This document shows positions 4,707-49,232 of a stretch of 64,000 nucleotides of DNA, in pieces (positions within the stretch are counted from its first letter, which is position 1; each line of letters begins with the position of its first letter). The position numbers were made by a program, and so were the translations under genes. The notes beneath the pieces were generated by a model. That model ran no database searches, had not been told where the DNA came from, and was given only the letters and a program-made list of their open reading frames with translations. This DNA is from Raillietiella orientalis (lineage: Eukaryota), in the NCBI GenBank assembly GCA_036172245.1, contig JAYWIR010000001.1, positions 6,944,001-7,008,000 on the forward strand, read 5' to 3'.

Positions 4707-7700
4707 ATGGGAGTTCCAGCTTTTTTCAGGTGGTTATCAAAAAAATATTCATCGGTTATTGTTCATTGTGAAGAAGACAAAGTAAGTTCTGTTCTTTTTA
4801 TTTTGTTTTTGTGTTAATTGCAAGACATGGACAAAAATGTGTGAGGCCATGTTTTAAAAAGGTTTCCTTATCTTGAATAAACTCTTATTTACCACGGATT
4901 CATTTTACAATTTAATCAATTCTTATTGCAAAATTTTTAACCGAATTTTTACCATCATTTGAAAAAGAGTGTTTGTATAATACTTGGCAATTAAGAGTTT
5001 TTGTATAATGTTTGGATTTATTATCTTAACTTTGTTTTTGATGAATCATATAGTAAAAGTTAATTTATAAGCTTTAGCAGATATTGTGTATTATGCTGAC
5101 ATTTGTAGATTGATTTACAAATGTTTTTCACTTCATGTTATGTGACGACACTAAGATTGTTGGCATGTATTGGTTTCAAACATGTTTTCCCATGTGATGT
5201 GTACTAATTCTACTGAGAAATTTGCTTATGTTTGTCTCTAATAGCCTAAAGAAATCAATGGTGTAAAAATTCCGGTAGATGCTACAAAACCTAATCCTAA
5301 TGGTATTGAATTTGACAATTTGTATTTGGATATGAATGGAATTATCCATCCTTGTACACATCCTGAAGACAGGTAAGTATTAGACTTTGTAATCATTCAT
5401 TTTCAGTTTCATTATTAGCTACAAATCACACATATTGTAACAGTTTCATTCAAATGTTTGTTTTAATTCTCACTTTTTTTTGATCTGAAAGACTGAATTT
5501 TGTAGCTGAAACAATTAAAGAATGAAAGGTGGAAAGGTATTGCTTCATGTTTTCAATCTGAGGGATCTATACATAAATATATGTGTGGTAATTTCGGACC
5601 ATTCCGATCAAATAGTGTGTTTGTATAGTGGTCAGAGGTGTAGTAGGCATTATAGATCTTCTCAAGTTAATATTAAGTATGAGTACATGTAAGTCATGTC
5701 ACCATTTAGGTCCTTTGATTATCATGTGCATTAGACTTGTTTTTAAAAAATAAACTATGCCATGTGTGAAATGTAAATTGATTGTTCTCTTGCAAGTAAT
5801 GAAATGGTAATGTGGTAATTTTTTTCTGTTGCATTTCATTATGTACTTGGATATGAACAATATCACTGATTATTATTTTGATGTTCATTAAAGTCATTTA
5901 CTTTTTTATGGCTATATTCCGATCTTCGGGGTGGATGTATTTGTTACAATTTAGTGGGAAATTCAGAGCTTTTTTTGTCCATTTCAAAAAGCATGTCTAG
6001 GATAATTAAAGCATAGAATTGTATAAGTGTTCTGTTTCCTCATGTTGTCTGTGATGCAAACCAACAGACATTTTCAGAGACTAGAAAGGGTTCATTCACT
6101 TTTTTGATCTTGAAAATTAATGTAATGCTTTAAATGCCATATTTTCCTTTGATCCATAATGTGAACTTTGTAAGTTAGTATTTGTAAGTACAAAATTTCA
6201 CATGAATTAGATTTTTTGTTGAATTTTTGATGAGTTTGGGAAAAGCTTTATTGATTCTATTAATCACTTAGTTTCCTGTTGGCTGTTTTCGTTCTAAATT
6301 AAGAACGTTTCTTTTAATGATTATTATCGTTTATCAGTGCCCTTCAACTTTCTAGTTTTTTCAGTTTTTTGTGGAATGCAGTTTGTTTGTACTCTCTGGT
6401 GTGAATTTTTAGTGTCCTATTCTTCAAGTTACAATATTTTAATATTTTGTATTACCCATTTAAAAAGTGATTGTGAATACTGACTACAAATTTCAAGTAA
6501 TTGTTTATTGCTGGTCTGACTAGGCAAATGGTAATGTGGAGCATGTGTGTGATGCATTTATCTGTAAACAAATTCTGTCTACATACAACTGAATGTTTTC
6601 AGACCTGCGCCAAAAGATGAAGATGAAATGATGATAGCAATTTTTGAATGTATTGATAGAATTTTCGCCATCGTAAGACCACGAAAAGTACTTTATATGG
6701 CTATCGATGGTGTAGTAAGTAGTCATTTTTACAAAACTATAAGCATCTTCAGTTTGTTAAAGTACAAAGATTTTTTTTAAACTGGAAAGGATGGAAAAAT
6801 GATGCAGGATGTAGAAATTTACCAAAATACCAAAGACTTTCGTAGTTTCATTCTTTTCTTACTGTTCTTTTTATAATTTCATTTTGATTGCTTTTCTTGT
6901 TTTGCATGTTAGGCTCCCAGAGCAAAAATGAATCAACAAAGATCCCGACGGTTTCGGGCATCCAAAGAAACTCAGGAAAAACTCATAGAAATGGAAAGAA
7001 TTTGTTCGGATTTGCAGAGTAAAGGAATTCTTGTACCACCAAAAAAACCAAAGGAGGCTTATTTTGATAGCAATTGCATAACACCGGTATGTTTGTGTTT
7101 TGGCAGTTTCTTCTTGCAGCCTGTTCTAAGCTATTAATGTTTTATTTCTAGTAAGCAATAGACGAATGCAATGAAACTACAAATTGTAATTGTTACAAAT
7201 TGTAAAATCTCAGTATCACGACAGTGCCGATATTATTGTACTTTAACTTGCTGTTTTCCATCTAGGGTACACCTTTCATGCATCGATTGGCAAAATGTTT
7301 GCATTATTACATCCATGACCGTCTCAATAATAATCCGGCATGGCGAAATGTTGAAGTGATTCTCTCAGATGCTAGTTGTCCTGGTGAAGGAGAACATAAA
7401 ATCATGGATTTTATTCGTAAACAACGAGGTGAGCATAGAACGCTTTTGAGGGTCGTATATCATTTTAAGAGCAGCTAATCCACATCATGACCCAAACACA
7501 CATCATGTGTTATGTGGAGCAGATGCTGATCTCATCATGTTAGGACTGGCCACTCATGAACCATATTTTACTATCATCAGAGAAGAGTTTAAACCTGTTA
7601 AGGCCAGACCTTGTGATATTTGTGGGCAGCTTGGTGAGTGTTTCTATTGCAGAAACATGAAAGTAATATGACTTAGGTCATGAGATGAAAGATTGTGTAG

Positions 7701-10147
7701 GTGGGATGAAGAGTAAAGAAGGAGAATATGATGAATTGGTTCATCCTTTACCTGCAGAAACAAACTACATATTCGTCCGCCTCAGTGTATTGCGCGAATA
7801 CTTAGAACGTGAGATGTACATGCCCAATCTTCCTTTTCCTTATGACATTGAACGTGTTGTTGATGATTGGGTGTTTATGTGTTTCTTTGTGGGAAACGAT
7901 TTCTTACCTCACTTACCCTCATTGGAGATCAGAGAAGGTGCTATCGATAGACTTATCAATTTGTATAAGAAAAGTGTGTATCGTGCTGGCGGTTACTTGA
8001 CTTGTAATGGCATGGTGAACTTGAATCGAGTACAGACAATCTTGCAAGACTTGGGTCAAGTGGAAGATCAAATATTCCGTGAACGGCAAGCACGTGAAAT
8101 TGCTTTTAGACAGCGAGAGAAGGCAAATCAAAAGAGAGCTAGATATGAAAGTGATGTGCGACCATCCTTTATGTTAGAGGGCCAGTTTCATCCAACAGTA
8201 ATCAGTGTTCTATATTATGATCCTTACTAAAGAGAGCTTGCAGCCTATTGGTTCAGTCACTTCTGCAGTGGAGCACCCTAAGCAAGAGGCCCAGAATATT
8301 CGGCGTGATAACTTGCGAAAGGAGATGAATGCCAACCAATTAGGCCAAAAGCGCCAGCATGAGGAGACAGATGAAGATAATGTTGAAACTGATGCAGTGC
8401 GACTTTGGGAGGCTGGCTTTAAAGACCGTTATTATGAATGCAAATTTGATGTAAATTCAAATGATATTGCATTTCGTTGTCATGTAGCAGCCGAGTATGC
8501 TTTGGGATTGAGTTGGGTATTACGATACTATTATCAGGTGAGCACTGGTATGCTTGTCCTTTTTGTAGCAGCGTTTGTAGGGGTGTGGCTGCTGGAAATG
8601 GTTTTTTCCTTACCATTATGCCCCCTTCGCTTCAGACTTCTTGGAACTTGGAAAGGTCAAAGTGGATTTTCCCAAAGATACTAAACCAGTAAGCATATGT
8701 ATGTTCTTGTTTCAAATGTTTGAGATATTTTTTTTTCAGTTCACCCCTTTTGAGCAGCTAATGAGCGTGTTTCCAGCTGCTAGTCGAATTCATGTCCCAG
8801 AACCTTTTGCTCAACTAATGGTTGCAACAGTAAGTTCTTTTCATCTTGTTCATTTTCTCAGATGGGTGTATATTATCTCAGGATTCATCTATTATAGATT
8901 TTTATCCTGAGGACTTTCGAATTGATTTAAATGGCAAGAAGTATGCTTGGCAAGGTGTTGCATTGCTGCCATTTGTTTGTGAGGAGCGTTTAAAGAACGC
9001 ATTAGCTCCATTATATCCACTATTAACTGAGGAAGAAGGTGGGTTTGTCTTTCAGAATCTATTTAGATGCTAGCTCCTTTTGTGGTTACAGTGGAACGTA
9101 ATCAGGAAGGTGAAAATCGACTGTATATTAGTAAGGATCATCCTGGATTCTCTTTGCTTCATGCTATGTATGAAGATGGTTTTACCAAAGATACAGTGGT
9201 AACTTTGGATCCCAAGTTGTTTGGCGGATTGGCAGGACAAGTGTTAGTGGCTGCTGATTTTGTTCCCTTAAACAGGTAAGGATACTAATGTAGAAACCCA
9301 TGAATCTAATATTTCTTGAAGTGTCCTTATTACAGGAATTCAAAGCTTACCGGATTTAAAGAATGAGCGAGTTGTGTGGTAAGTCATTGTGCACTTCAGT
9401 ATTGTCGGGATCGAAAATACTTTTTACAGTGTGAATTATCGTGATCCAGTTTATCCGAAGAATTATGTCTTTTTAGCTCGTCGTTTACCTGGAGTAAGGT
9501 CAGTCCAGCGTTTTGACATAAGAAAAACAGTTTGCAGTTTTTATTTCAGGGAGCCACCAAGAGTTCTTAAACCTCAAAATCTCAATCACAGTGACAGTCG
9601 TGCTTGGCGACCTATGATTGGCATGACACATTCCACAACAAGAGCTTCTTTAGACATCAGTGGCCATCGGATGCTAAGGTTATCTGTAATGTTAATTGTT
9701 TGCATGTTTTTTTTTTTTCCTGCTTGCAGGCATTCGGTCAGCTATCCTGGCAGCCACAATAAAAGATATGGTTCCCAACCTTATTTCGGTGCAATGGCAA
9801 TGCAAGGATATAATGTAATTCCATATCCACTTATGGATCAGGAAGAACAATTTGTTTCCCGACAAAGATACGAGCAACAGTATCGTTCTCGATGTGACAA
9901 CAGGTATTCTGTGACACCATACAACAGTCAGTATTATGATAACAGGTAAGGAAACTTGGGCTGTTAATAATTGATGTCATGGATTCAATAGGTATGAGAA
10001 TTCATATTATGACTCCCGCAGCCCTGCCCAGAGAAACGAAACATGGGTATGAACAATGAATAATTAATCTGTAAACCTTTTTTCTTCTTTTCTTTCCAGC
10101 ATTCTAGGGATGCCACAAGAGCATCCGGCAGATATCGATATCGTTAA
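4707..10147 (+). CDS. XRN2: 5'-3' exoribonuclease 2 (XRN2/Rat1), 18 coding exons, 912 aa
   Basis: Exons, all GT-AG and in phase: 4707-4781, 5245-5372, 6603-6714, 6913-7086, 7266-7428, 7475-7633, 7677-8197, 8244-8537, 8581-8688, 8740-8829, 8882-9038, 9092-9275, 9322-9378, 9430-9498, 9550-9678, 9730-9945, 9992-10046, 10100-10147 (2739 nt including TAA). XRN family motifs: [112 protein letters not shown]. The CCHC knuckle [14 protein letters not shown] and the length indicate XRN2 rather than XRN1. The last two exons rest on splice signals only. Confidence 0.97.
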
Positions 10148-10339
10148 TGTGTTTTTTTTTTATTTATTGCTTGATATTATTAAAACTCAGGTACAGGACT
10201 TCAAGCCACAATTACATGTTCAGTTTGAACGTGAGTTCTTATTTGACTGGAAAAGGAACACATAGAACAATGGAGAATGCCTTGAATCTGAATCTTTTTA
10301 CTGAATGAGTTGATTGAATTTTTAAAAACTACAATTGGT

Positions 10340-10345
10340 AATAAA
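10340..10345 (+). terminator. Candidate polyadenylation signal of XRN2
   Basis: AATAAA about 190 nt after the stop codon; an ATTAAA variant lies at 10179-10184. Confidence 0.4.
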
Positions 10346-10639
10346 ATGCTTGAGTTCTGTATCCCTCGAAAGAAACTTAAATTTTTATCGGAGAGCACTG
10401 TGTATACTGATGTATACGGGGTAAACAGAAAAGAAAGAAAAAAAAAATTATGAGTAGGTGTGAATGTAAATCAGAAGCATGACTTTGGATAGAACAGTAC
10501 TTGCGCCGTCTACGTATGAAGCTGTGTGCACACACGAGCCAAGCGTTATCACCTATCTTTTCCTGCGGACAGTGGTTCGATGCTTCCGTGGGGGTTGTTA
10601 GCCTTGTGGACACTGCGTGGTATTGCAGTCATAATCAGA

Positions 10640-10880
10640 ATTCAAGTGTCTGTAGGTCTGGCGCTGCTCCTGGACAGTATCTCATCTTGTGCGCTTTGAC
10701 AGGGCATGCTCAGAATCAGTGGAAGGGAGCAAGAACTGCTTCCGTTTTAATTTACTAGCCATCAATTGCACAGTGAGGCTTAGGAAACGGTCACTTCTGT
10801 TTTAAATGTTCGCTCTCGAGTTACTATCGATCAGTGGAGTGCCATCACTTCCAAACACGTTGGCGACGGGCCACTTTTAT
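10640..10880 (-). mobile_element. Highly decayed RTE-like LINE fragment (post-RT region)
   Basis: Frameshifted minus-strand translation gives RVWK, TRERTFKTEV, CN*W, LAPFH, DEILSRS in order. This follows the RTE pattern RVW..TKxRIFKxxV..ETW..LExFH..EEVLxR. Confidence 0.3.
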
Positions 10881-13800
10881 CATCGAAGAAAGGGTCTGGT
10901 GCAAATCTGTTGACTCCTATCGCGCATCGCCATCCCAAAAATGTGCCCCTCGATGAGGATTTCCGCTGCTCTTAAGGACAGGGAAAAGGGGGGGGGGGGT
11001 TCCTCTACTTCAGTAGGCATCGGAAATACGATTTTCACTCTTGTGGATTATGGTAATCGTAGATTGAGAGGATTGTCGGAAGACGACCTTTCTGATTCGA
11101 AGGAATTAGCGTTTTTAGGGAAGCGTTGGCGTCTGTCGTGTTGATGAGCAGGAGATGAGAGGATGGCAGAGAACAAAGGGGCAAAATAAACTTGAGTTCT
11201 GATTTAATGGTAATGTGTTTCCATTTAGTCGGAACTTATGACTTTCGATTTAAAGCTCCCCGTGCACAACACTTTCGTTTCGAGGTGGAGAATAACACCC
11301 ACTTCTGTCTTACGGCTGTCTCATATACTGGAGCAGCCTTTATGCCCATGCACTATTGCGGGAGGTCCATTCTGATAGCAGCCTCAGTGTTTCCATTTCC
11401 GTGCAGTGTTTTTATTTCGAGATGCAGGGATATGTGATGTGTGTATTGTTCCATTCGTTTTGCAACAAGCCCTTAAGAGGCGTAGCAGCCACCATACTGA
11501 TCATCTATGTATAGCATGGAGAGTGGGTACTAAGGATTTGCATTAGGAACTAATTAGGTCATAGGTGTAAGGAGGTCACCGTGACATACTTGAGAGAACT
11601 TTCATTGCTATAATCCTCGTGATACGTCCACAAAGTGCTGCAGTCATCGATCTTTAGTGACTTTGCAGTTTTACACTTTACAAGAACTTACGTTACTCTT
11701 GTAAGAATATATAGAGTGACTGATGTGTTTGAGTAGTTGCCGCGACACCAAGGTTTACTCTAATGAATAAGAGTGCCTATGTAGTTTTGTATTTCTTTGT
11801 TTGCAGTGTGATGGAAAAAAAAAAAAATTTCAGCACGGCAGTTATTTTCAGCCAGTGTTCCTTCCTGCAGTATTGGCTGCGTGTTCACTTTTACCTGGAA
11901 AACAAATCTGGAGTATTTTCCTACCAGAACTGTGCAGTAAAGAGTTTTTTTTAAAAAAAAAAGAGAAGTAATGAAGAATGGAGTCAAGCTGTATAAACAA
12001 AGCGTGTCATTGATATCATTTCGGTTGTGCACTCAAAAAGCGAAGGATAAGTGCCTAGAGCTCTCATCGAGGAGAAAATCATCACATTCGTCCGTATTTT
12101 AAGAAACCAGGTTTGCTGGGACATTGGTAAAAATGTCTGGAAAAAAAAAAAAAAAAAAAGGAACGCATTCTATAAATTTTCATACACAAGATTTGTCCCC
12201 TAAATATTACGTGTGCCAAACAACTGGACCGATCCATAGTCAATTTCAACGCTGTCTCACGAATCAGAGAACCACAAGTTGGTCCCCTATTCCGCAGTAA
12301 AATCTCATTTGCATCACATTGAACGCACAAAGATGAACGCTGTGCTCAAATATCCAGCTTCGTTCTCTCCTCCAAGACGCTTAAAAGAAATTCCACATCA
12401 TCAGCGACAACGAGACCTTAATAGACAGCAGGCATCAGAGCCCAACGTACTTGATCCTGAATCATCTACTCTGTCCCCATCTCATTATCATCACCACTGG
12501 AATTATTCCACCATCAAAAAATAAAGGAAATGTAAAATCCAAAAAACAACAACAAAAAAAGACCCTCTTGTAAACCTTGGTAATACCTACTAATACTACC
12601 GTTAACACATAATCACCTCATCGTTCTATGTTTTCGCCGCGCCGTAAAGCACAGTAAGACTACTGTCGGGTCACACTATCGCCCCTCATTTGTCGAATTC
12701 CCTTCTCGTGAGCCACCCCTACTCCCAATCGCGCCATAAGACCTACCACTACCAGCCTTCAAGATGAAGGAACCCAACACTTCATCTTATAGAAACAATC
12801 AGTCCCACCATGAAAAGAAGGGACTCGAACATGCGCCGCCACTCATGGGGTCACCCTTCCCACCATGCGGGGTAGCCAAAACGGTCGACTCAAACATAAT
12901 TTCACATCTCCCTCGCAAAACCTTTGATTGGCACGCTCCTCTGGCAACCGAATCTGAGGCTGGCTGATTAGATCCGGAGTTACCATAAAACCGAGCATCC
13001 CACAGTCATTCCACACACACAAATTTAAATAAAACGCGATTATCTACCACGGAGCACCTCACGTCAATTATCCTTCACGATCTGGACCGCCTTACCGCTC
13101 TACCACCGATTTTGTTTTGTCACCAACTCAGTAATCCTGGAGCTACTCATCCTGCACCTCTCTGTTTCCGCTAACCCTACGTGTGTACTCCCTCTACCGA
13201 TCTTCCTGTTTTCGGAAGATAGGTGCAATGACCTCTCATAGATGGGATTGTGCCGACCTTCAGTGGAACGCCTGCCATCAACCTCAAACTCCTTGCATTA
13301 TTCCTCCTCACCCTCCTACGTCTATCCCCTCATCTACTAATGCACTACTATTCTAGTATCTACTATTATCCACCAGTTTGTTATTATCATTTCTCCTGCT
13401 CTGTTGGCATTCTGCTTTCATCCTCGGCCATTCCCCTCACTTCCTCTTACCCTATTAACGTCCATCTACCCACACATAATCCTCCAGCTTCCGTACACTC
13501 CCTCAGCGCTTCCAGGAATGACAAGCTGCATGGAAACATTGAAATGTTCACATCAGTCTGCGCATGCCTTTTCATCGACTCCCAGCTCTGGAATCCGGGC
13601 TCGCTGGTGGGAACTACCCCTAAGACCCCCCCGTCTGTGCTCATCGCTAGTTGTTACCAGCTCACCGCTCTTGGCTCGCTGATTGCTTCGAGCGTGGAGT
13701 CCGAACGTGGTCGGCTTCCCATGGCATGGAAAATTCCCGATGGGTTTCCCCTCCTCCTTGACATTTCGTTTTCGGGATTTCCAAACCTCTAGGAACGCGT

Positions 13801-16800
13801 GCAAAACGCGTGGCTGTTTCCCACAGTTTCGCCAGGAACTTGGCGTCCGCTCTTCAGGACGGTCATCGGACGCCAGTCGCCGATGCTCCGTAAGTCTCCG
13901 TTTCTGGGGAGGAGGAGCCTTACGGAAAATCCTCCACTGCGAGTTTCGGCACCGGGGCTGCAGAGACTTGCGGACACGTACTGCCGAAGAGCGTTGTTAC
14001 CTTTCCATCAGTCCCGCTTTGGATACCTTTCTTCTGGAAGGGGGAGGAGGAGGTACCGTTGTAATTGCTGGTCTCTTTCGCAACTCGAAGCGTCAAGGTG
14101 AAGATCCTTTCCGTGGACGGATTCGTCTCGTCTTGTTCGCGGAGGCGTTTCCTCCTGCTACTTTTTCCATCTGCTGCTCGCTGAAGCTCCCACTGGAGCT
14201 CACCGAGAACTGCGTGGATCCGGGAAGCCCTGGTCCATGCAGTTCTCTCCGCGCGGACAGTTCAGGCACAGCGAGTGCGATGCTGCTTCCGGGAGAAACG
14301 TGCGACGAAAACGACAGCAGCAGCAGGGAGTCCAGGACGGACAATGGTGACCGGAAATCATGGAATGATGATCAGTAAACTGATGAAGCTTTCGGAGTAC
14401 CCAAGCAAGAAAGAAGCGGCACTGCTGAAAGTCAAAAATCCCGGAATCACATCTCGAAACACGTGCGAATTTTGCTTCGTCTCTCTCTGTGCGTGCGCGT
14501 GTGCGTGCGTTTTTTGGTGAGCATCCCGAAAACATCCACATCCGGCACAAAGTTGATACGTGTTGACACCGCTCTTCATCGGCGGACGGTCCCCAAATCA
14601 GGCGGCGCGGAACATCCTGAGAAGACACGGATTTTTCTGCGTGCGAGAATGTGTGGAAGGAAATGGAGGATACGTCGCTCGGTTCCAACTTTCCCTCCGG
14701 GGAAAAAAGGGGAGGGGGGTGCTAGGTGCAAAAAACTTGGGCATCAGGAAGCGACGCCGCACAGCTCGTGTTGAATGACCCCCACACGTCTCCTCACTTC
14801 GGAAGCGGGAAGAGGAGGAGGGAGGGGGAGGAAGAAGAACAACAAAAAGTGTTCTCCGGTACTCTGTGAAACGATGAAGAATCAGTGTGTCTGAAAGCGG
14901 TCGACTCCTCAAAAAAAAAAAAAAGATGTCAAAATGGGTCGAACAAAAGCGACCCAACAATGATGAGGCCCACGGAAAAGGTGTGCCGAAAAAAGCTGCA
15001 GCTGAAAGAGAATTTCCAGGCTGCGCTGAAGCTGCCATAATTGGGGGCGGGATGAAGGGGGGGAGGGGGGGGGGGAAAAAAGGAAAAGGGAAAAGGAAAA
15101 AACGCTCTGCAACTTTCCTGTAAACAGTTCCCAACTTCACGCGGAAAGATCGCGGGGAACGGAGCGAGTTCCCGGAACCGTTTCGGGCGCGGCGACACGC
15201 CGGCCGTCTGGCGCGCGAAGAGGCGGCGTGACGTCACCGTCCGCCATCGCAGGAACCGCCGCCGCGCAGAGCCGGCAGACCATGTGATATTGCCCCAGCC
15301 CTCGGCCTGCTCCGGGTGTGCTCCTCGCTTCGCGGCTGGGTCCCAACCTCCTCCTCCCCTTCCTTCCCTTACACCCTCGCAGACCCGCAGTTTCCTTCCG
15401 GAGCACGGAGCCGGAAGCGGCTTCCGGTCTCGTCCTTTCGCTCGGAGGTAAAAAAAAAAAAAAAAAAAAAAAGATAGCAAACGGATGGAACCCGCTGCCC
15501 GCGAATCCGCCTCCGCTCCCTCCGCAGGCCGCCAGATTAGCACGGGTGGAGGGTGTCATCGGGCGCGTGGTGTCCAAGTGCGCATCCCGAGGGGGGGGGG
15601 AGCACAGAGGGTAATCCTCTCGAAAGATAACCGCGGTGTTTGCGAGGAAGGGGGGGGGGGGGGGGAAGCAGTGGCAACGTGCGCGGGACGAAGGCGCGCC
15701 CTCCGCCACCACTCCCGGAACGCGAGCGGGAGAAAAAAAAAACTCCATAATGGGTGAAGCGGAGTAAAAGAATGCGACCTCGTTCCCAGTCCTCCCCGGA
15801 ACGGAAAGATAAATCGGTTCCCTCGCTCCGATAAGATCATATTTCGCGCCTGAGTGACCTTTCCCAGAAGGGCCCCCGATGTGTGCGCGTCCGACCTCCT
15901 CGCCCGGCCCCATTGTGGCCCTTGACCGCGCGACAAAGGGAGAGCTGGGAAGGTCCTCCAGCGGAAGGACCTTTGTGTCCCATGAGGCGCGCGCGGAGCG
16001 GGAGCCTGCGAGCGCTCCCGTCCCGCGCCGCCGGCGTCGCAGGGGCGGGAACACCCGCAGGAAGCCCTCCTGGGGCGGCGCCGCCGTTCAGTGGGAAAAC
16101 CTTGACATGTCCTGGGAGCGGCGAGTCTTACGTGTTAGACCGCGAGAGGGTGCGTGCCCGACCCTCGCTGCAGCGAGGCGCGCGCGCAATCTCCCGGGGG
16201 ACGCCGGCGGTGCAAAGAGCTACGAGGGGGCGGGGGAGGCATCCTCCGCGCAGAAGTCCACGCCGAGCTGCCGCACCCGCGCGCGCACGTGTGGCATGTC
16301 CCCCCCTCTCCCTGGCTGCCGTGCGCGCTCGCGCGCAGCGGATGGGGCGCCCATGCGCCGCTGTCAATCCTCCCGGGCTCGGACAGCGGGGTCCCTCGGT
16401 GAGATCTCGCTCCGCTTCGCGGTCCAGTCTTCTCTTGGTCGTGGAGGTGACCGAGGGGTCAGCGTTGACCGACGGCGCACTAGGCTCTGCAGGGCACTCC
16501 ACCTGGTCCAGAGCCCCTGAGTAGAACACAGAGGACCAAACCACTCCGTTGGGAGTGGCCGGGCGGACGCAGAAGAGGAGCAGTCCCGGAGGTCAAGGCT
16601 TGACCCCGGACCCTCTTAGCGACACCTTCGGAGGCAGCAGGGCTCCCAACAGGGAGGATTCCGCCGAAGTCAGCCTGACCACGGCATCTCGGGAGCGGCC
16701 GGCGGCTACAACCACGATGGGACGCCTCCTCCGGCCTGCCCGCAGGGCGCATGAGCCTCCCCTCCCTTCTCCTACGACTCGAAATGGGAGCCGCCTCCCT

Positions 16801-19800: not shown

Positions 19801-22800
19801 ACGAAATGCGTGGGCGCACGCCCTCCCTCCCCTTCTCGGTGCGGCGCAGCGGCTTGCGCCCGGTTTCGACCGGCAGTGACGCCCTGGCAACTGTGCGCGA
19901 GGGGGAGAAGAGGGGGACGCTCATGTTCGCCGGAGCTCTCCCGCTTCTCCTGCCAGCTCTCCGCGCCCGCGCGAAGGGACCACTGTGGGCGCAGACTGGC
20001 TCGCTCCCTCCTTCCCCCGTCGAGGCCTTCGAGAGGAGGCTGCCTGGATCCCCCCGCCCGGATCGCCGCCGTGAGCCTCTCCACCCGCCCGCTTCGGAGA
20101 CTCGCCCCAGGGAGAGGGAGAAACCCAGGGCAATTTCAGAGACGGGCGCAGCTCCACGGGATGGTGATGATGATGACGAGGGAGAGGGGAAAAGAGTAAG
20201 GAGGGAAAGGGAGCAGTCCCTCAGCAGCCTGTGCGGGGTCGCTGGTGGGGGAGATTCCCAGGGACCTTCCTGGGGCTGTCTCTCTTTCGATCCCTCGGGG
20301 AGGCGAGGCGGCGGCCGGGATGGGTGCTGCATTGGGGCTCTTCCCTCCCCTGGAGGAGGAGGGAACGCGCGCCCTAGAAAGGGATATGGGGCTTCCCGGA
20401 AGGCGCGGTGGGCTGCTCCGCTTCCAGCGCCCCTTCGGGAAGCAGGTCGCGCGGGCAGGGAGAGGAGAGATACTCCAAGGAACCGTGCAAGCTCCCTCCC
20501 CCTCTCTCGAGGAAGAGAAGGGTGAGGGCAGCTACCCGCCGCCGCCCCCCCTCCCCTCGGATAGAAGGAAGGAAGGACGTCGCTAGTCCCTTCCCTGTGG
20601 GGCCATGGCGCGTGGCCCCGGAGACGACGTGGACCTGAATCCCGTTTCCCTCCACCCCTTTCCGCTGGCAGCCCGCCCGCTCGAGCGCGCGCGTCCCTCC
20701 CTAATCCCACCAGGAAGCGGGAAGAGCCGAAACGCAAACGCCGCTAATCGCCAATAACAGAGAGAGTGCGGACTCCTCCAGGACACCGCCGTCCCCTCCC
20801 CTTTCCGCGCGCCGCTTCCAGGGAGGGAGGTGCGCTCCCACGACCCCCGTCGGGTTTTCCGAGGGGAGGGAGAAAAGGGGAGGGATGGACCCCTCCCCGC
20901 GCGCCTGTCGGCGGCCCTCCGGGAGCCGGCTCCAAGCGGGAGGAGACGGCCCTCTTCTCTCCTGCCTCCCCCGCGAGGAGGGGGGAAGCTCGCGCGCTTC
21001 CCTGCTCCCCTCTCCTCTCCTCCTCCTGGCTCGACCTGTCACCGCGGATCGGGGAGGGACGCAGTCGCCTCCCGGTCCCTCCTTCCGCGAAGGACGCGCA
21101 GGGTACCGTCATCGCGTCCTGTCACCCGCACAGCCCCCATAAACGGTTTCCCGCCGGGAGCTGTCGGCAGTTAGCGGGGGCGCTCCCGGACGGGCCTTCA
21201 GGAGCAGGCAGCCGCCGCACGTCCTGGATTTATGGCTGGGGAAGGGAAGGCCCGGCTTCGCCGCATCTTCCCTTCCCCGCCGAGAGAGCGCCCCGCGCGG
21301 GGGTGGGAGGGGTAGGAGTCGGGAAGCGCCGGGTAGTCGGGGACGCTCTCGCACGGAAGATGCACGCGGGGAGGCTTTGGAGCCGGGCGACAAAGGGAAG
21401 GAGATCGATAGCGCCTAGCCTCCGGGAGGAGTGCCCGCCGCCGGGATGCGGGCCACGGCAGGAGCACCGCCCCTGCCACGGCTCCCTATCGACAGCGTGT
21501 CGGACAGGGGGCGCGAGGGGCAGGGCGAGTGGGTTCCTCTCACGCGCCCCCTCCACCATCCTTCGTCCCCGTGCCACCAGGAAATGCCCGCGCGGATCGG
21601 ACGCTCTCCGTCCGACCCGGAGACGAAGGGATGCGTCCATGGAGATGCCGCACGACAGCTTCCGTGATGTCTTCCCCCCTTCCCCCTTCTCTCCGCGACG
21701 CCCCGCCCTGAGCAGGCACGCGTGCAAGCTGAAAGCAGCCCTAGGGTCATATAAGAAACCCGCAGGAGAGAGGGGGCGCAAAGGGGAGAGGATACGCCCA
21801 CGAGAGGGGCGTGGGGCTTGTGTGAGGGGACATTTTTCCATATCTCGTCTGCGGCCGCTGGAGCTCCCGAGCTCTGGAGCTTCTTGTTTGGGATGGGATG
21901 GTGGGGTCCTTTTCGAGCTTGGAATACGCCTTGGTGGAGGGAGGAGTAGGAAGGAAAAAGGAAGAGGAAGAAGAGGAGGAGGAGGAAGGGTGCAAAAGAA
22001 GGAAGACAAGGAGGGAGAAAGGAGGAGGAGGAAGAAGAAAGGAAAACGAAGAGGGGCAGGAGGAAGAAGGGAAGAAGAAGGGATGCTGATGGTGTTTGCT
22101 GGCAGATTGGGGCTGGCTAGGTGGAGAAGTGAGTTTCTGCCGCATCGGAGGGGAAAGGGGGGGGGGGAGGGAGGAAGCCTTGCGACGCGCTCTCCCATGG
22201 TCTCCTCCGACGCGCACGTCGTCGTGCGCCGTGAGTGGGGCCGCTCTCCTCGCGCGCGCGTAGCGGGTAAACACGCACAGGGACGCCGGCGTGCCGGGCG
22301 CCGGCTGGGCACGCGGCCGGCGGTCGAGACGGCGTCCAGTTGGAACGAAGGCGACGCCCCCCCTCCCTCTCTCTTTCTTCCCTCCCTCCCTCCTTCATCC
22401 TCCCTCATCTTCCTTTTTTCCCTCTTCCTCCCTCCCTTCTCCCTCCTTCCTTTTTTTTTTGTCCGCGCGTTTCCTCTTGGATGGAATTTCTGGAATTCCG
22501 CCCGAAATTCCTGGGCGACGCTTCCGTTTGTTTGCGGAGGAGGGGTGGGGTGGTGCCTCGCACCGGCGGCAGGAACGGGGAAGGCTGCCGCGTTTTCCGG
22601 ATGAGCCCTGACCGGACGGCACGCGGCCGGCGAGGGGCGCGCCCGTCTCGCTCTGCACCCGCGCGCGCGCGCGCACGCTCGCGACATCCTGTTTGCGCCC
22701 GGCCCTCAGGGGAAGCGCAGGAGAAGTGCGGAGGACCAGCCCGCTGGCGGCGACAGCCTGAGCTCGACGTCACGCCATCAGGTACAAAGGGAAAAGTCCC

Positions 22801-23718
22801 GGCCCGGAGGCGGAGGTCACTCCGCGGGTGCCCCCGTCTCCGTGGCAACCTTTTGCTGCTGCTGCTGCTGCTTCTGCTGCTGGATTCTCCTCTGTCTGCC
22901 TTCTGTTCGGGCCTGCTCCCTTTGAGGAGGAAAGCAACAGCAGAGGCAGCGCGGAAAGGGGAAAACAAAAAAAAAGGAGGAGGGGGGGGGGGAGAACCAA
23001 AAAATGGAATGCCATCCTCACGGCGGCATACTGGAAGATGCAGTCAGGAAAGGATGCTGGAATCCGATATCAGGAAGAGCAAACATTTGCATTCTTCCGC
23101 GACTTTCAGCGCGAAGTGTTTGCCGTTCTTCGGGAAAGACAAACAGAGACGAGGAGGAGGAAGAGGAGGGAGGGGGGGGGGAGTGGACGCTAGCGATGCT
23201 CGCGCACCCCGCGAGGTGCGAGGGAAACGTGTCGAGAACGAGCAGCCGCCGCAGCCCGCCGGCCTGCACGCCGAGGGCACTGGGACGGCCTCTCCCTCCC
23301 TTGCAGGACGTCCACAGCCCGCACGCCTCACGTCCCGGCACTCCCCATTTTCTTTTTTTTTTTCCTCTCATCCCCACTGCTGCCCGAGAAGGGCGCCCAC
23401 GGCGCAAACGGCGGCTACAGGCTGGTCACGTGAGCTCCAGGGTGGCTGCAGGTCCGGAGATCAAGTAGCACGAGAGGAGCCGCGCGATCCGGTCGAGCGC
23501 GCGAAACATTCCACCTTGCGCTGCCGTGGCAACGGCCGCGATCGCATCACGACACTTCATGCACGCGAGCAAAAAAGCAAAGCAACAAAAAAACTTCTCG
23601 TGGCGCCACAACGCGCGGCTTTTTAGGACGGAAATTGGTGGCACTTGGTGATGGCGCAGCGACGCTCCACTCGCCTCGCCCACGCTTGCAGCGCTGCTGA
23701 TGTTCCATCTCGGCGCTG

Positions 23719-23766
23719 CTATGGTGTAATGATCCTCCACCGGAGCCAGGATCGTGTTCGAGCCTT
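23719..23766 (+). mobile_element. Degenerate tRNA-derived (SINE-like) head
   Basis: A-box-like TGGTGTAATGAT (23722-23733) and B-box-like GTTCGAGCC (23756-23764). The spacing is too short for a cloverleaf, so this is not a tRNA gene. Confidence 0.3.
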
Positions 23767-23780
23767 GCGCCACCTAGTGG
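23767..23780 (-). promoter_or_regulatory. Candidate CTCF site
   Basis: The minus strand reads CCACTAGGTGGCGC, matching the CTCF core consensus. Confidence 0.5.
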
Positions 23781-25276
23781 GAGTCGCTGGCTCCTGCGGA
23801 GGGGAGCATGGACTTCGGCTGGCGCGAATACCGTCGGACGCCCCCTGGGAGAGAGCCTAGCTGGCGCCCCTCCTGCAAGAACACCTCGCGGAAACACTCC
23901 GGGGGCATTGCGGTCCAAGCGCGGGGTGGCGCTCGCGGTGTACGGGCGGGTGTGAGTCACGTGCAGACGCAGATCTCCCTATGGGCACCGGTCGCTCCCC
24001 CTCGCGCCCTATGGAGACGGCGGCAGCTCACTTCCTGGCCTCAGGAGAACGACGACGGGGGGACTCCGAAAGTCCTCCCGTCTCTGAAAGGAGGAACCAG
24101 GAATCCTCTCCCGTGAGCCTCCTTTCCGTCCTCTGACGCCAGCCGCTCCACTCCTCCTGAGTTGGCTCTCGGGAGGGATCCCGAAACGCTTCTCGAGGCA
24201 GCAGGAGGAAACTTCCTGGAACGTACTACCCCGGCTGATCTCCCGAGCAGCGCTACCTTGCGGCCGCACGCGCGTCAGGGGGCGAATCTAGGAAACATCC
24301 AGGAGGGGGAAGTCCCGGTCCACGGCGGGTGAAAGCTGAGAACATGAAGCGGCCGACGGCGAGGGGGGAACGCCAGGGCGCCGGTGCAGGTTGGGAATGG
24401 GAGGGAATCGTTCTCTGCTGCCTGTGGACGTCTTGAGGACTTGGCCCAGAGCAATGAGGGCGGGCGTCGAGAGGGAGGTAGGGTTGCCACTCCTCCTCTG
24501 CCTCTTCCTCCTCCGTTCATCCTGGAGCGAGGTGCCCCCTGTGATCGGCCCGACGAGCCTGAAGCCGCCTCGAAGGCCCTGACGCGAGGCGTCCGAGAAA
24601 GCTGGAGCATCGCCTCCCTGGAGCCCCTCGCCTGCCCGCCAAGGATGGTGAAGCGTCACGCTCGCGGACGCCGCAACTGGCGAGAGGCAGACGGAAAAGC
24701 CCCAAGTCCGACCGCCGACCGGGACGGGGTCAGGGCGACTGACTCCGCTCCCAAGTTCGTCCCGGGGCTGAAAGTGGGGTCCGATTTGCCCCAGGGCTCC
24801 AGTGCACCCGTCCCGGGAGAGGAAAGAAGTGGGCGCGGGGACGCAGAAAAGCAGCCGCGCTGCCTCAGTGCAGGGAGGAACGCGTCCACGGAGACGGAGA
24901 CATCTCCCTCCCCAAAGAGCCCGGCGGTGGCGGCGGCCTGATCCCGTCGGGAAGCACCTCCTCGCCTTCCCGTCGAGCTGCGTCCCGGAAAAGATTCCGG
25001 GGGATTCGAGGAGAGGCGGAGGAAGGACGCAGCGATTGGACGCCTCGAGGAAGGGGGAGAGGGGATCGGCAGGGGGGAACGAACGCATTCCATCCCTGGA
25101 GCCAACCCGCCGTCGGTCCTTCCCCTTCCTGCCTGCCTCCCTTCGCTCCATTGCGGGAGTTTGGACCGATGCCCAAGCAAGCCGCCGATGCCCCTCCCCG
25201 AAGCGAGGACTTGGCCCAGAGCAAGGGTGAATTCTATGCCACCTCCTCCTCCCTCCTTTCCTCCCTCTTTTGGTAG

Positions 25277-25277
<1 letters not shown>

Positions 25278-25375
<98 letters not shown>

Positions 25376-25421
25376 GGAGGAGGAGGAGGAGGAGGAGGAG
25401 GAGGAGGAGGAGGAGGAGGAG
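25278..25421 (+). repeat. Compound microsatellite (GAT)32(GAG)16
   Basis: Uninterrupted GAT repeats at 25278-25373 are followed directly by GAG repeats at 25374-25421. Confidence 0.97.
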
Positions 25422-25587
25422 AAAAGGGGGTGGTTGGAGAACTGGATTGTGGAGCTGCCGCCGACCGCGCTGCGCCCATTCGGGCCAACCGGTCCCGGGA
25501 TTCCGTCCCCCTGATCGCTCCATCCACGGATCGGGTTCCCCCCCTCACGATGCTTCCGTCGAGACCATTCCGTCTTCCCTGAGCTTT

Positions 25588-25593
25588 TTTATT
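25588..25593 (-). terminator. Candidate polyadenylation signal of NK2.1
   Basis: First minus-strand AATAAA I found downstream of the proposed stop, about 1 kb away. The hexamer is rare in this GC-rich DNA. Confidence 0.3.
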
Positions 25594-26623
25594 CCCGTGG
25601 GAGAACGAATCTACCGGTCGCGCCCCTGACTGGGAGGGAGGAGTCGCCAGCGTCGACGCGGTCGGTACTCTCTCTTCCGGTTCCCGGATGGGGGTAAGAG
25701 AGGAGTCGTCTTGAACTTGAGGCTCCCTGGGCGGGGGCTCCTCACGGATCCCCCTTACATTGGAAAGGAGAGGCACGTCAGGGTCTCCGGCGTCCTCCGT
25801 GATGTGACCACGGAGATGCGGACGTGTGGGAGATGGCCGTCCTTCTGCCGGGGCCGCCCGGCAGGGAGAGAGAGCCGAGGCGATGCTTCGCGGGACCCGG
25901 AGAGGAAGAGCGAATCCCCCATCTTCCCACATGGGGCAAAGGGGTGGGTGTCTCCCTAGTAGTTTCTCCGAAGTGGACGCCCCGCAACATCCCCCCCCGA
26001 AGTTTCCGGGAGGGAGGGAGGGAGAAGAGGCAGGATGATTTGCCTTCCCGTCAGACAAGCCGACCCTGGATCCCTCCTTCCTCCTCCCCCCACGGCGGAG
26101 CCGCGAGGTGCCCTCTCCTGCGGGACCACTCGCGGATCATTCGAGTTTCCAGGGACTTCCCGTGTCCAGGGCAGACGCGACTCGGGAGCCCCTGGAGGCA
26201 TCCCACTTCCCATCTTCTCCCCGGTCGGATTCCTGCCTCCCCGGAGGAGGAGGATCAGGAGACCAACTGCTCCCCCCTCCCCTTTCCGGGACGGCGACGA
26301 ATATCCCCTCCCTCCCTTTTCCTCGCTTCCTTCTCCCCTCCCCTTTCCTTCCCTCCTGGCGCCCCTCTATGGATGCCTGCTCCAAAGAGGGAGGCCACGC
26401 TCTCGCAAGAAACGTTTTTTATCACACAGATCGGGGGGGAGGGTGGGATGAACGTCCAGGTCCACCTGAAAGCGGGGCGCCGGCCGCGCCGCTCGCCAGT
26501 GGCGCTGCTGCTCCTCTCCTGTCCTCTGCCCCCTCCTCCCCGCGGGGAGGGGAAGGAGGCCTCGGTCCTCTACTCGTAGAGAAGACGAGAAGGGGGTGAG
26601 GGGGTGGGGGCTGGACGCGAGGC

Positions 26624-32900: not shown

Positions 32901-33967
32901 GGGATCGGAGTTCCCGGAAGAGGGAGCGGAGCAGCCGGGGTGGTCCCATCCGACACCTTTTCCTGGTTCTCCCATCCCTCCTTCCCCTCAGAGTTCCTCT
33001 CTGGCAGATGCCCGGGAGGGCGAGGGGAATCCAGTCCTCGGTCCCTGCGCCTACTCGCCCCTCTGCGTCCTCCCCGCTGAGGGCGGGGGCGGCGGGGAGA
33101 GAGAGAAGGGGGGAGAGTTCTCGGACGAGCGGGTTGAGGGGCCAGGCGCGGGACCTCGCCCCGCCCTCGCGTCCGTTTAGAGTGGGGTCAGGGGCTGAGG
33201 GGGGTGGGCTCGGAGCGGCACCTGCCATCTCCAGGGCGTATGCAGCTGGCAGTCGGGGCGAGGGCGCCCCGTCATCCGCAGGGCACTGCGTAGGGGAAGG
33301 GGAGGAAGAAGGGGCCGTCTAGAGCAGGAGGCAACTGGGGCGTGGGGTATGAACGGGGGTCGCGAGCGCGCGCGCAGGCCTTACTTGAGGAGAGCCGCGG
33401 GTCTGCATTGGCCGTGGGACCGTACCAGCCCGCGGCGGCGGCGTTCCGGATGTCCCCGTAGTGGGCGGAGAGGTGATCGGCGGTGCCGCAGCACTGGGGC
33501 GGGAACGGGGGTCCGTGGTGATGGTGGTGGTGGTGGTGGTGGTGGGGTGGGAACTGCGGGACGTGCATGTGGGCGTAGGGGCTGGAGGCGGCCACGGGCG
33601 CGCCCATGCCGGTCGCGGGCTGGGAGCAGCGGTAGGGAGGGCTGGGGCTAAAACCGTCGAAGGATGGCTTGAAGCGGAACGACTCGTCCACGTAGGGGCT
33701 GAGGATGTCGGTCACCGAGAACGGGGTTGAGTGGAGGTACTTGGGGCTGAGGGTCATCGCCGCCCGCGGGTCGTGGAAGTCGTCCGGGGGGGTCAGCAGG
33801 TCGGCCCTGCACCCGGGGGGACCCACCTCCCTAGCAGAGGGGTGGTGGTCCACGTCCGTTGCTGAGCCTCCTCCTCTTCCTCCTCCTCCTCCTCCTCCTT
33901 CGGCCGGTATCCTGGAGATCTGCACGGCTGCTGGGGGCGGGGGCGCGCCCTGGTGCTGCACGTGCAT
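26624..33967 (-). CDS. scro: NK2.1/scarecrow-class homeobox transcription factor (NKX2-1/NKX2-4 family), 5 coding exons, 415 aa (345 aa from ATG 33757)
   Basis: Exons 33967-33385, 30567-30407, 30351-30256, 28992-28909, 26947-26624, all GT-AG and in phase. Motifs: TN/eh1 [42 protein letters not shown]; homeodomain [60 protein letters not shown] with the NK2-diagnostic Tyr54; then KEKAM as in arthropod scro. The last exon is less certain. Confidence 0.93.
28909..28992 (-). CDS. scro: NK2.1 exon 4 (homeodomain helix 3)
   Basis: Acceptor TCTCTTGCAG, translation [28 protein letters not shown], donor CAG/GTAGGT. Confidence 0.95.
30256..30351 (-). CDS. scro: NK2.1 exon 3 (homeodomain residues 13-44)
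   Basis: Acceptor CCCATCCAG, translation [32 protein letters not shown], donor CAG/GTAGGT. Confidence 0.97.
30407..30567 (-). CDS. scro: NK2.1 exon 2
   Basis: Acceptor CCCGTCTCCTAG, translation (I)[15 protein letters not shown]...[20 protein letters not shown], donor CAG/GTGAGG. Confidence 0.95.
33385..33967 (-). CDS. scro: NK2.1 exon 1 (TN/eh1 motif, His10 run)
   Basis: Encodes [11 protein letters not shown] and GWYG..DPR; phase-1 donor A/GTAAGG at 33384. The start is ATG 33967 or ATG 33757. Confidence 0.9.
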
Positions 33968-49164: not shown

Positions 49165-49232
49165 GTAGTGGATCGAACCGCGCCACGTAGCTGGGTCGGT
49201 GACCCTCGAGTACCATAGGCTCTCCGCTCGAA
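49165..49232 (-). mobile_element. Degenerate tRNA-derived (SINE-like) head
   Basis: B box GGTTCGATCC at 49179-49170, preceded on the minus strand by A-box-like GAGCCTATGGTA. No cloverleaf. Confidence 0.3.

Follow-up and report, generated by a model that had tools for sequence, protein, structure and literature searches.

We asked whether the adjacency of XRN2, a housekeeping nuclease gene, and an NK2.1-class homeobox gene in Raillietiella orientalis is real, how it relates to gene neighbourhoods known from other animals, and what might hold the two genes together. The DNA analysed (the window, 64,000 nucleotides) carries XRN2 on the plus strand and the NK2.1 gene on the minus strand. With a probability of about 0.8, we read it as a genuine, natural tail-to-tail XRN2-NK2.1/scro pair in a pancrustacean and as a further instance of the known xrn2-nkx2 block.

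The two genes and their surroundings

The XRN2 gene was modelled from tblastn searches with three XRN2 proteins combined with reading of the DNA (Table 1), which gave 18 exons, 2718 nt, and 905 aa, with a TAA stop at 10145-10147. An apparent stop at 9950 was rejected: the position belongs to a GTAAGG splice donor, downstream of which come two further short exons. All 17 introns of the spliced model are GT-AG, and 13 of them measure 43-70 nt; introns 1-4 (463, 1230, 198, and 179 nt) are the only sizeable ones, and together the introns account for ~2.7 kb of a gene 5.4 kb long. Membership in the XRN2/Rat1 family is evident from the XRN_N and XRN_M domains, which Pfam detected in individual exons (XRN_N, E 1.6e-9 and 1.9e-12; XRN_M, E 2.6e-45 and 3.5e-14). 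The best protein matches are "5'-3' exoribonuclease 2" at 65-67% identity; among the best matches listed, those with a descriptive name are 5'-3' exoribonuclease 2 or 5'-3' exoribonuclease, the rest being unnamed or hypothetical. The model contains a readable internal CCHC knuckle, which is typical of animal XRN2, and the protein is nested among arthropod sequences in an XRN2 tree that was built without an XRN1 outgroup.

The first four exons of the NK2.1 gene encode a TN/eh1 motif and a complete homeodomain. A search with exon 1 led to Nkx-2.1 and Nkx-2.4 proteins, and its junction with exon 2 (DPRLSS/ITRFMG) coincides with the end of Penaeus exon fragments (DPRFA/). Exons 2 and 3 are parted by a 55-nt intron. 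Against a profile of 120 NK2.1-type homeodomains, the three homeodomain pieces scored E 5.9e-20, 9.4e-13, and 4.6e-8, and the assembled 60 residues equal the consensus of an alignment of five arthropod NK2.1 proteins. The domain contains WFQNHRYK, with the Tyr54 of NK2-type homeodomains and NK2.1-type residues; the assignment to NK2.1 rather than NK2.2 draws on diagnostic residues and on a comparison set free of NK2.2 sequences. An earlier sequence-only reading had extended the gene to 33967, an in-frame ATG that precedes the conserved start by 210 nt, but orthologue alignments start at MTLSPK or MSLSPK and not at this upstream ATG. The same reading had described the homeodomain flank as arthropod scro-type. 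This is borne out for a 12-residue flank, which is shared by 102 of 117 orthologues that are arthropod or unnamed and lacking from all 7 non-arthropods, but not for QFPLxQRRK, which is not arthropod-specific because nemerteans and Priapulus carry it too.

Table 1. Features of the window; positions count from its first nucleotide, and minus-strand coordinates run in the direction of transcription.
Feature	Position	Strand	Remarks
XRN2 (5'-3' exoribonuclease 2) CDS	4707..10147	+	tblastn and DNA reading
AATAAA, likely XRN2 polyadenylation signal	10340..10345	+	DNA reading; ~190 nt past the stop; putative function
Spacer between stops, sequence-only model	10148..26623		no recognisable gene
GC ramp, 44% to 69% over ~5 kb	12000..17000		1-kb values 0.438, 0.516, 0.530, 0.623, 0.692
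Perfect (TGA)33 then (GAG)16 microsatellite	25277..25421		Tandem Repeats Finder; in spacer
Probable last NK2.1 exon, ...GGHCPSVGH	26947-26624	-	TAG stop 26626-26624; coding part 26947-26627
Frame-broken NK2-specific-domain look-alike	28901-28846	-	PRR..VP..KDG..PC across three frames; 8 nt past exon 4
NK2.1 exon 4, homeodomain helix 3 and flank	28992-28909	-	followed by GTAGGT; E 9.4e-13
NK2.1 exon 3, homeodomain residues 13-44	30351-30256	-	E 5.9e-20
NK2.1 exon 2, homeodomain residues 1-12 at its end	30567-30407	-	
NK2.1 exon 1, with TN/eh1 motif	33757-33385	-	
Open in-frame extension to upstream ATG	33758..33967	-	no conservation in orthologues
NK2.1 upstream region	34000..64000		at least 30 kb with no recognisable gene or second homeobox; GC 42-71%, CpG o/e 0.62-1.11

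Both gene trees agree on the origin of the DNA. The window falls inside a 17-row Pancrustacea clade in the XRN2 tree (SH-aLRT 100) and likewise inside a 17-row Pancrustacea clade in the NK2.1 tree (SH-aLRT 96), and the species is therefore a protostome and not a deuterostome, a possibility that the sequence-only reading had proposed to check by an XRN2 phylogeny.

The gene models and their strands confirmed the convergent arrangement that had been proposed, and nothing recognisable lies between the two genes. A distance of ~16.5 kb between the stops had been given; this fits the last exon in Table 1, whose stop lies 16,477 nt from 10147, while the spacer extends to 18.6 kb under two shorter models of the NK2.1 tail. 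Searches of the spacer returned no Rfam family and no tRNA, and no Pfam family scored above cut-off among the 10 longest of its 206 ORFs of at least 60 aa. Long ORFs in the GC-rich DNA (618 and 444 aa) were considered as genes and rejected, as they look like non-coding translations; the long spacer ORFs are R/G/P/A/S-rich translations of GC-rich DNA. The spacer microsatellite mimics coding periodicity. Upstream of NK2.1, the 10 longest of 330 ORFs likewise matched no Pfam family, and no second homeobox was found anywhere in the 64-kb window. The XRN2 and NK2.1 orthologues are directly adjacent here, as in the published microsyntenic block.

The two genes differ in base composition. The XRN2 body has a GC content of 0.29-0.41 and a CpG o/e of 0.28-0.64, whereas from 15 kb onwards the values are mostly 0.55-0.71 for GC and 0.8-1.1 for CpG o/e. 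NK2.1 sits in at least 50 kb of gene-poor DNA rich in GC and CpG, and this block adjoins the compact, AT-rich, CpG-poor XRN2; the window contains no N.

The 3' end of NK2.1

The candidate last exon of NK2.1 begins at a phase-0 acceptor after CCTTTTCTTTTCTCGGCAG, behind a pyrimidine tract, and is open in only one frame. GC at its codon positions 1, 2, and 3 is 0.67, 0.53, and 0.81, respectively, and the difference between GC3 and GC2 (0.27-0.29) exceeds the 99th percentile of 1871 background windows from the GC-rich block (0.248). A comparison with orthologue C-termini by HMM gave nothing significant (E=22), and the exon had no Pfam match and no usable ESM Atlas match. Two shorter tail models end at 28785-28783 or 28780-28778. 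Codon periodicity is weak in both model A, which reads through (GC3-GC2 of -0.07 on 123 nt), and model B, which has a 65-nt intron (0.19 on 63 nt). The candidate is probably the last exon of the gene, and models A and B were kept as alternatives.

Comparison with scro, NKX2-1, and NKX2-4 proteins disclosed both likeness and difference. The TN motif, the consensus homeodomain, the arthropod-type flank, and the Penaeus exon 1/2 junction are common to the window gene, in contrast to two C-terminal motifs. VAVPVLV, the core of the NK2-specific domain (..RRVAVPVLVKDGKPC), occurs in 120 of 124 retrieved NK2.1 orthologues but not in the window, where the top profile match (E 0.2) is on the wrong strand. 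The C-terminal GR(T/A/S)W end (..YLPLQGR(T/A/S)W), present in 116 of the 124, was not found in the window either; the top matches reached E 0.12-0.29, and none has a stop after it. The frame-broken look-alike just past exon 4 corresponds to a frame-free pattern, devised only after its site had been seen, that, with both strands searched, had a single match in the window and none in 200 simulated 40-kb sequences. The candidate last exon opens with a second, weak look-alike. Judged from the sequence, the canonical NK2-specific domain is absent from Raillietiella orientalis NK2.1. As this domain was not found, we class the gene as an NK2.1 orthologue on grounds of descent and regard its C-terminus as atypical.

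The pair in other animals

Human XRN2 and NKX2-4 are oriented tail-to-tail. As in the window, XRN2 on human 20p11 stands beside an NK2.1-class gene; there, however, the gene is NKX2-4, a vertebrate paralogue of NKX2-1, and here it is a single pro-orthologue. The human adjacency named in the sequence-only reading is on record (PMC5766544, Table 3), at a distance of 5,540 bp, compared with a spacer of 16.5-18.6 kb here despite an XRN2 gene of only 5.4 kb.

The sequence-only reading had also suggested that the pair dates to the bilaterian ancestor. Its antiquity is already in print and goes deeper: in the text of Lin et al. (2024, PLoS Biol 22:e3002661, PMC11175523), xrn2 adjoins nkx2.1 in every deuterostome examined and in 6 of 6 spiralians, xrn2 and nkx2 are adjacent in two corals, and the block is inferred for the cnidarian-bilaterian ancestor, with xrn2-nkx2 forming the first part of the 10-gene complement of the "pharyngeal cluster". 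The window shows the same two genes directly adjacent, with XRN2 at the outer edge and a spacer with no recognisable gene, but in a pancrustacean, whereas that text reports the block from deuterostomes, spiralians, and two corals. As in the spiralians described there, in which only xrn2 and nkx2 are tightly associated, the window has no nkx2.2, msx, or cnga within 30 kb. The neighbourhood having been published as ancient in 2024, with evidence from three of the four large branches of animals, the window therefore adds only an arthropod example. The text of PMC11175523 calls ecdysozoan chromosomes highly reorganised and names no ecdysozoan for the xrn2-nkx2 cluster; its S26 Fig and S1 Table may differ.

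In order to follow the pair through Ecdysozoa, we took the 13 species shared by our XRN2 and NK2.1 protein lists. Twelve were comparable, Amphibalanus being set aside because its two proteins stem from different assemblies. In 10 of these 12, XRN2 and NK2.1 lie on contigs of identical size: Chamberlinius (6,011,642), Centruroides (401,027), Priapulus (828,292), Orchesella dallaii (5,570,140), Oedothorax (45,659,719), Pollicipes (47,009,503), Cylas (53,128,360), Ceutorhynchus (57,682,032), Anthonomus (30,256,041), and Anabrus (1,806,822,858); a shared contig is taken here from equal size and not from names, and the six chromosome-scale cases speak for the same chromosome only. The contigs differ in size in Tachypleus and Sitophilus. 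Accessions are consecutive in a millipede (Chamberlinius, GAB6024456/57), a weevil (Ceutorhynchus, CAG9766386/87), and a scorpion (Centruroides sculpturatus, XP_023232029/30). Near neighbours were seen in Oedothorax (locus tags 016249 and 016255), Orchesella (CAL8090200 versus 203 and 206), and Priapulus (XP_014676796 versus 805); RefSeq accession order is not positional in Cylas, Anthonomus, Pollicipes, and Centruroides vittatus. Among 80 metagenome loci (622 kb) with XRN2 relatives, none contains an NK2.1 homeobox, but most are short or non-animal and the insect-like ones end inside XRN2, so that they carry no information on linkage. The species comparison of contigs and accessions, which bears on linkage alone, indirectly supports an extension of XRN2-NK2.1 linkage to most comparable ecdysozoans. 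We found no paper on the pair in ecdysozoans, a point on which the supplementary material of PMC3514665, like that of PMC11175523, may bear.

Explanations for the persistence of the pair

The GC jump from ~0.4 to ~0.65 could suggest an assembly misjoin or contamination at 12-15 kb, in which case XRN2, on the AT-rich side, and NK2.1, on the GC-rich side, would not be true neighbours in the animal. However, the change takes the form of an N-free ramp, both genes fall within Pancrustacea and contain very short introns (43-55 nt), and a chance join would hardly recreate a pair that is adjacent in other animals, which makes this explanation highly improbable. If the neighbours are genuine, their adjacency could also be a neutral survivor of the ancestral gene order, since small gene pairs may last by chance. 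No functional datum ties XRN2 to NK2.1, and the genes lie on different contigs in 2 of the 12 comparable ecdysozoans. Such inertia is harder to reconcile with a pair that persists in cnidarians, deuterostomes, spiralians, and many ecdysozoans, the more so as ecdysozoan chromosomes are described as highly reorganised (PMC11175523), and we consider it a doubtful but not negligible possibility. The chances are about even that cis-regulatory constraint on NK2.1 holds the pair together. It could act through NK2.1 elements in the spacer and on the 3' side of XRN2, or through a constantly active XRN2 marking where the regulatory domain of NK2.1 ends; any one mechanism, taken singly, is unlikely to be the right one.

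Constraint could take the form of a classical genomic regulatory block, with XRN2 as a bystander whose introns (introns 1-2 in the sequence-only reading) hold NK2.1 enhancers, so that a break would sever NK2.1 from them. The deep conservation of the pair across animals and the sizeable introns 1-4 of XRN2 are in line with this, as are two proven bystander pairs of the same cluster, slc25a21-pax1/9 and mipol1-foxA, in which, according to the text of PMC4729200, a non-developmental, unrelated gene has likewise long been kept beside a developmental transcription factor gene. Regulatory elements are documented in the bystander introns of those pairs, whereas none are known for XRN2-NK2.1, and XRN2 has almost no intronic space here: with 13 of 17 introns at 43-70 nt, there is little room for enhancers. 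The XRN2 body also differs from the NK2.1 block in being rich in AT and poor in CpG, and "xrn2" does not appear in the main text of a systematic microsynteny survey (PMC3514665). Enhancers in the XRN2 introns are an unlikely reason for the linkage. Alternatively, a constantly transcribed, germline-methylated XRN2 might insulate the edge of an unmethylated NK2.1 domain, and the tail-to-tail layout would keep the XRN2 promoter off the NK2.1 enhancers. In flies and mammals, domain boundaries are enriched in active housekeeping genes, the GC rise starts just 3' of XRN2, and the low CpG o/e of the XRN2 body against ~0.8-1.1 in the NK2.1 block points the same way. Against this, methylation and chromatin state are read from base composition alone, and nothing shows a need for XRN2 specifically as opposed to any active gene; we regard insulation by XRN2 as quite unlikely.

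A more speculative and rather doubtful proposal joins these strands. The pair would be among the very few non-paralogous ones found side by side in all major eumetazoan branches, including ecdysozoans as far apart as Priapulus and beetles, and would have been kept as the XRN2 3' flank borders or belongs to an unmethylated NK2.1 domain, while NK2.1 would have lost its NK2-specific domain and C-terminal motif in this lineage. NK2.1 would then represent a natural deletion of an otherwise almost invariant domain, and its odd C-terminus is a lead for students of the NK2-specific domain.

Returning to the genuine pancrustacean pair as our preferred reading, what is new is a clean arthropod example together with an indirect sign that the linkage has survived widely in Ecdysozoa. 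The step from a CpG-poor XRN2 to a CpG-rich NK2.1 block is sharp and suggests a concrete, testable border. Should gene coordinates confirm the ecdysozoan linkage, the case for constraint over inertia would be strengthened, and tractable arthropods would become the place to ask why a nuclease gene with a housekeeping role has remained next to one that patterns the head and foregut.

Gene structures of XRN2 and NK2.1

Gene models on opposite strands (table below) confirmed the convergent layout that had been proposed from sequence alone, with XRN2 (5'-3' exoribonuclease 2) on the + strand facing an NK2.1-class homeobox gene (scro/Nkx2-1/Nkx2-4) on the - strand. In tblastn, XRN2 proteins from a barnacle, a horseshoe crab, and a priapulid covered the gene piecewise from 4707 to ~9800, and 17 of 17 introns in the spliced model are bounded by GT..AG. 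The product ends in ...RASGRYRYR before a TAA stop at 10145-10147; a stop at 9950 was rejected, as it lies inside a GTAAGG donor with two further short exons downstream. Only introns 1 to 4 are larger (463, 1230, 198, and 179 nt), the remaining 13 of 17 measuring 43-70 nt, including four of 43 nt exactly (short-intron region 7429-10099). Single exons matched Pfam XRN_N and XRN_M well over the cut-offs, and exon 7 as a query retrieved 4595 proteins at E <= 0.001 among 4877 candidates. Within the best 120 of these 4595, the top matches were named 5'-3' exoribonuclease 2 and came from Pollicipes, Amphibalanus, Darwinula, and Tachypleus, with an identity of only 65-67%. Upstream of XRN2 (1-4700), the ORF listing showed no recognisable gene.

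Features of the XRN2-NK2.1 region, including alternative 3' ends of NK2.1 (models A, B, and C)
Feature	Position	Strand	Basis or remark
XRN2 coding sequence, 18 exons, 905 residues	4707..10147	+	DNA reading and tblastn
AATAAA downstream of XRN2	10340-10345	+	DNA reading
Perfect (TGA)33, running straight into (GAG)16	25277-25421		in spacer
NK2.1 exon 1, carries TN motif	33757-33385	-	exon model and protein search
NK2.1 exon 2	30567-30407	-	exon model
NK2.1 exon 3	30351-30256	-	exon model
NK2.1 exon 4, GTAGGT directly after	28992-28909	-	exon model
Model A, read-through past exon 4 to TGA	28785-28783	-	
Model B, 65-nt intron, then stop	28780-28778	-	
Model C, last exon, stop 26626-26624	26947-26627	-	phase 0, immediately after CCTTTTCTTTTCTCGGCAG

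The NK2.1 homeobox, on the - strand, is the only one in the window. Its homeodomain is identical to a consensus drawn from five NK2.1 proteins of arthropods and is split by two phase-0 introns, one of 55 nt (30352-30406) at residues 12/13 and one of 1263 nt at residues 44/45. Against a profile of 120 NK2.1-type homeodomains the three pieces gave E values of 5.9e-20, 9.4e-13, and 4.6e-8, with zero other matches at E < 1 in the rest of the window. Exon 1 as a query matched 15 proteins at E <= 0.01 (among 625 candidates), six of which, from arthropods and vertebrates, are named Nkx-2.1, Nkx-2.4, or NK2 homeobox 4a. The exon 1/2 junction (DPRLSS/ITRFMG) coincides with the ends of Penaeus exon fragments, and position 33967, the end coordinate in the sequence-only reading, is an upstream in-frame ATG that is not conserved.

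The 3' end of NK2.1

Of the 124 retrieved orthologues, 120 contain VAVPVLV, the core of the NK2-specific domain, and 116 have GR(T/A/S)W at the terminus. Both motifs were absent from every frame of the window, where the best matches (E 0.2 and 0.12) fell in irrelevant places. We lean slightly towards model C, the 3' end proposed by the sequence-only reading. Its exon is the sole open frame at the site, with a GC content of 0.67/0.53/0.81 at codon positions 1/2/3, and the GC3-GC2 difference of 0.27-0.29 lies above the value (0.248) that marks the 99th percentile across 1871 background windows free of stop codons. The start of the exon weakly echoes SPRRVAVPVLVKDGKPC and its end reads ...GGHCPSVGH. 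The stop codons of XRN2 and NK2.1 lie 16,477 nt apart under model C, in agreement with the 16.5 kb estimated earlier, and 18.6 kb apart under model A or B.

Directly 3' of exon 4 (28846-28901, - strand), PRR, VP, KDG, and PC follow one another as in the NK2-specific domain, distributed over three frames, and ~90 nt beyond (28700-28760, - strand) is a stretch resembling the barnacle end CASYLPLPGRSW. Judged by these sequence resemblances, the two segments look like a decayed copy of a compact barnacle-type C-terminus. A frame-free pattern for PRR/VP/KDG/PC had one match in the window and 0 in 200 simulated 40-kb sequences, a figure that overstates the case because the pattern was devised after the site was seen. 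Under models A, B, and C alike, the canonical NK2-specific domain is missing from NK2.1.

The spacer, base composition, and integrity of the join

Within the scope tested, no recognisable gene lies in the spacer between the two stop codons, as the sequence-only reading had stated: across the whole window no Rfam family reached its gathering score and no tRNA was detected. Of 206 ORFs in the spacer, the 10 longest gave no Pfam match above cut-off (one sub-threshold match, in a proline/histidine run), and on translation the long ORFs yield R/G/P/A/S-rich strings, as is typical for GC-rich non-coding DNA. Past 34 kb, where 330 ORFs were listed, the 10 longest also lacked a Pfam match above cut-off, and NK2.1 is the sole recognisable gene across at least 50 kb. 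NK2.2, Msx, and any other homeobox were absent within the 30 kb upstream of NK2.1 (34000-64000); therefore NK2.2/vnd is not a close neighbour of NK2.1 here, whereas NK2.2 is close to NK2.1 in deuterostomes.

On the - strand, the trinucleotide tract of the spacer reads as a ~33-His run after a Pro run, within a 300-aa ORF whose sole Pfam match is sub-threshold. At 20748-22601 (+) and in overlapping ORFs, GC-rich DNA is stop-free for 618, 491, and 451 codons on both strands, far above the length from a simple base-frequency estimate at that GC; the translations are non-coding in appearance. Repeats with a purine/pyrimidine skew occupy 21948-22446.

The GC content of the window is 30-42% over 1-12,000 and mostly 55-71% from ~15 kb to the end. 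The XRN2 body (4000-10000) is AT-rich with a CpG o/e of 0.28-0.64, and the NK2.1 block (14000-64000) is GC-rich with a CpG o/e of ~0.8-1.1, showing no depletion. This contrast suggests the pattern expected for a germ-line-methylated, active housekeeping XRN2 beside a large unmethylated NK2.1 domain; the GC gap (~0.35 vs ~0.65) is far beyond what CpG loss alone gives. The first kb of the window, with GC 0.45 and CpG o/e 1.18, contrasts with the XRN2 body.

Several points argue against a misjoin between the XRN2 and NK2.1 parts as the source of the pair. The composition shift is a ramp over ~5 kb (GC 0.44, 0.52, 0.53, 0.62, 0.69), the window contains zero N, unusually short introns are common to both genes, and the join reproduces a pair adjacent in other animals. 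The two genes also agree in broad placement. The XRN2 tree (39 rows) nested the window in a Pancrustacea clade of 17 rows (SH-aLRT 100), outside the springtail-plus-insect clade, on a long branch (0.77) with no firm position among ostracod, Daphnia, and copepods. The NK2.1 tree (30 rows) also assigned it to Pancrustacea (SH-aLRT 96), beside springtails (93, not starred), and there too its branch is long. From both trees, therefore, the species is a protostome, not a deuterostome, and the protein collection contains none of its close relatives.

Linkage in other animals and retention of the pair

The antiquity proposed by the sequence-only reading was correct, deeper than suggested, and already in print, because Lin et al. 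2024 (PMC11175523) report an xrn2-nkx2 block dated to the cnidarian-bilaterian ancestor, with xrn2 adjoining nkx2.1 in every deuterostome they analysed and in 6 of 6 spiralian genomes, and xrn2 beside nkx2 in two corals. In that paper's passages on xrn2 and the pharyngeal cluster and in its figure legends, ecdysozoans enter the chromosome-scale analysis only, not the cluster one. Table 3 of PMC5766544 gives XRN2-NKX2-4 distances of 5,540 bp in human, in line with the adjacency stated in the sequence-only reading, and 6,391 bp in axolotl. The deuterostome cluster and bystander pairs as presented in Simakov et al. 2015 (PMC4729200) do not include xrn2, the main text of Irimia et al. 2012 (PMC3514665) makes no mention of the pair, and a full-text literature search found no further paper on it.

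Linkage in ecdysozoans was read from the length of the contig carrying each protein, equal length standing in for contig identity. The XRN2 list held the best 120 of 4595 matches, and the NK2.1 list, from a profile of five arthropod proteins, the best 120 of 3405 (E <= 1e-20, 8000 scored candidates). Thirteen species appeared in both among the matches listed; Amphibalanus was left out because its two proteins belong to different assemblies. Among these matches, XRN2 and NK2.1 sat on contigs of identical length in 10 of 12 comparable species and on contigs of differing length in Tachypleus and Sitophilus, a measure of contig sharing and accession order only, not gene orientation. Four of the ten involve tellingly small contigs (Centruroides 401 kb, Priapulus 828 kb, Orchesella 5.6 Mb, Chamberlinius 6.0 Mb); the other six (Oedothorax, Pollicipes, Cylas, Ceutorhynchus, Anthonomus, Anabrus) show the same chromosome or large scaffold only. 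Accessions are consecutive in the millipede Chamberlinius (GAB6024456, GAB6024457), the weevil Ceutorhynchus (CAG9766386, CAG9766387), and the scorpion Centruroides sculpturatus (XP_023232029, XP_023232030), RefSeq numbering being non-positional in several species. The genes are six locus tags apart in the spider Oedothorax, and the accession gap is three and six in Orchesella dallaii and nine in Priapulus.

Two gene models resembling XRN2 (CAL8090203, CAL8090206) lie near NK2.1 in Orchesella dallaii, and one Pollicipes chromosome carries a pair of NK2.1-like proteins together with an XRN2 protein that is listed under two accessions. These extra models may be local duplicates, or isoform or haplotype models.

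The existence and arrangement of the XRN2-NK2.1 pair, and its retention across many lineages, are demonstrated by these data; any mechanism that keeps the genes together we infer. XRN2 offers little enhancer room because 13 of its 17 introns are at minimal size, and if constraint exists, its elements would more likely reside in the 16-19 kb spacer than in XRN2 introns. Alternatively, XRN2 may serve as a border of the NK2.1 domain. Neutral survival, in which the pair would persist unconstrained, appears less likely given its wide spread. A preprint (10.1101/2022.06.10.495707) reports that in deuterostomes the xrn2 and nkx2 genes follow opposite courses of expression over time, and speculates on post-transcriptional control by Xrn2.

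This kind of pair is already known, and the window adds an arthropod case. The ecdysozoan spread of the pair and the atypical C-terminus of NK2.1 are modest new leads.
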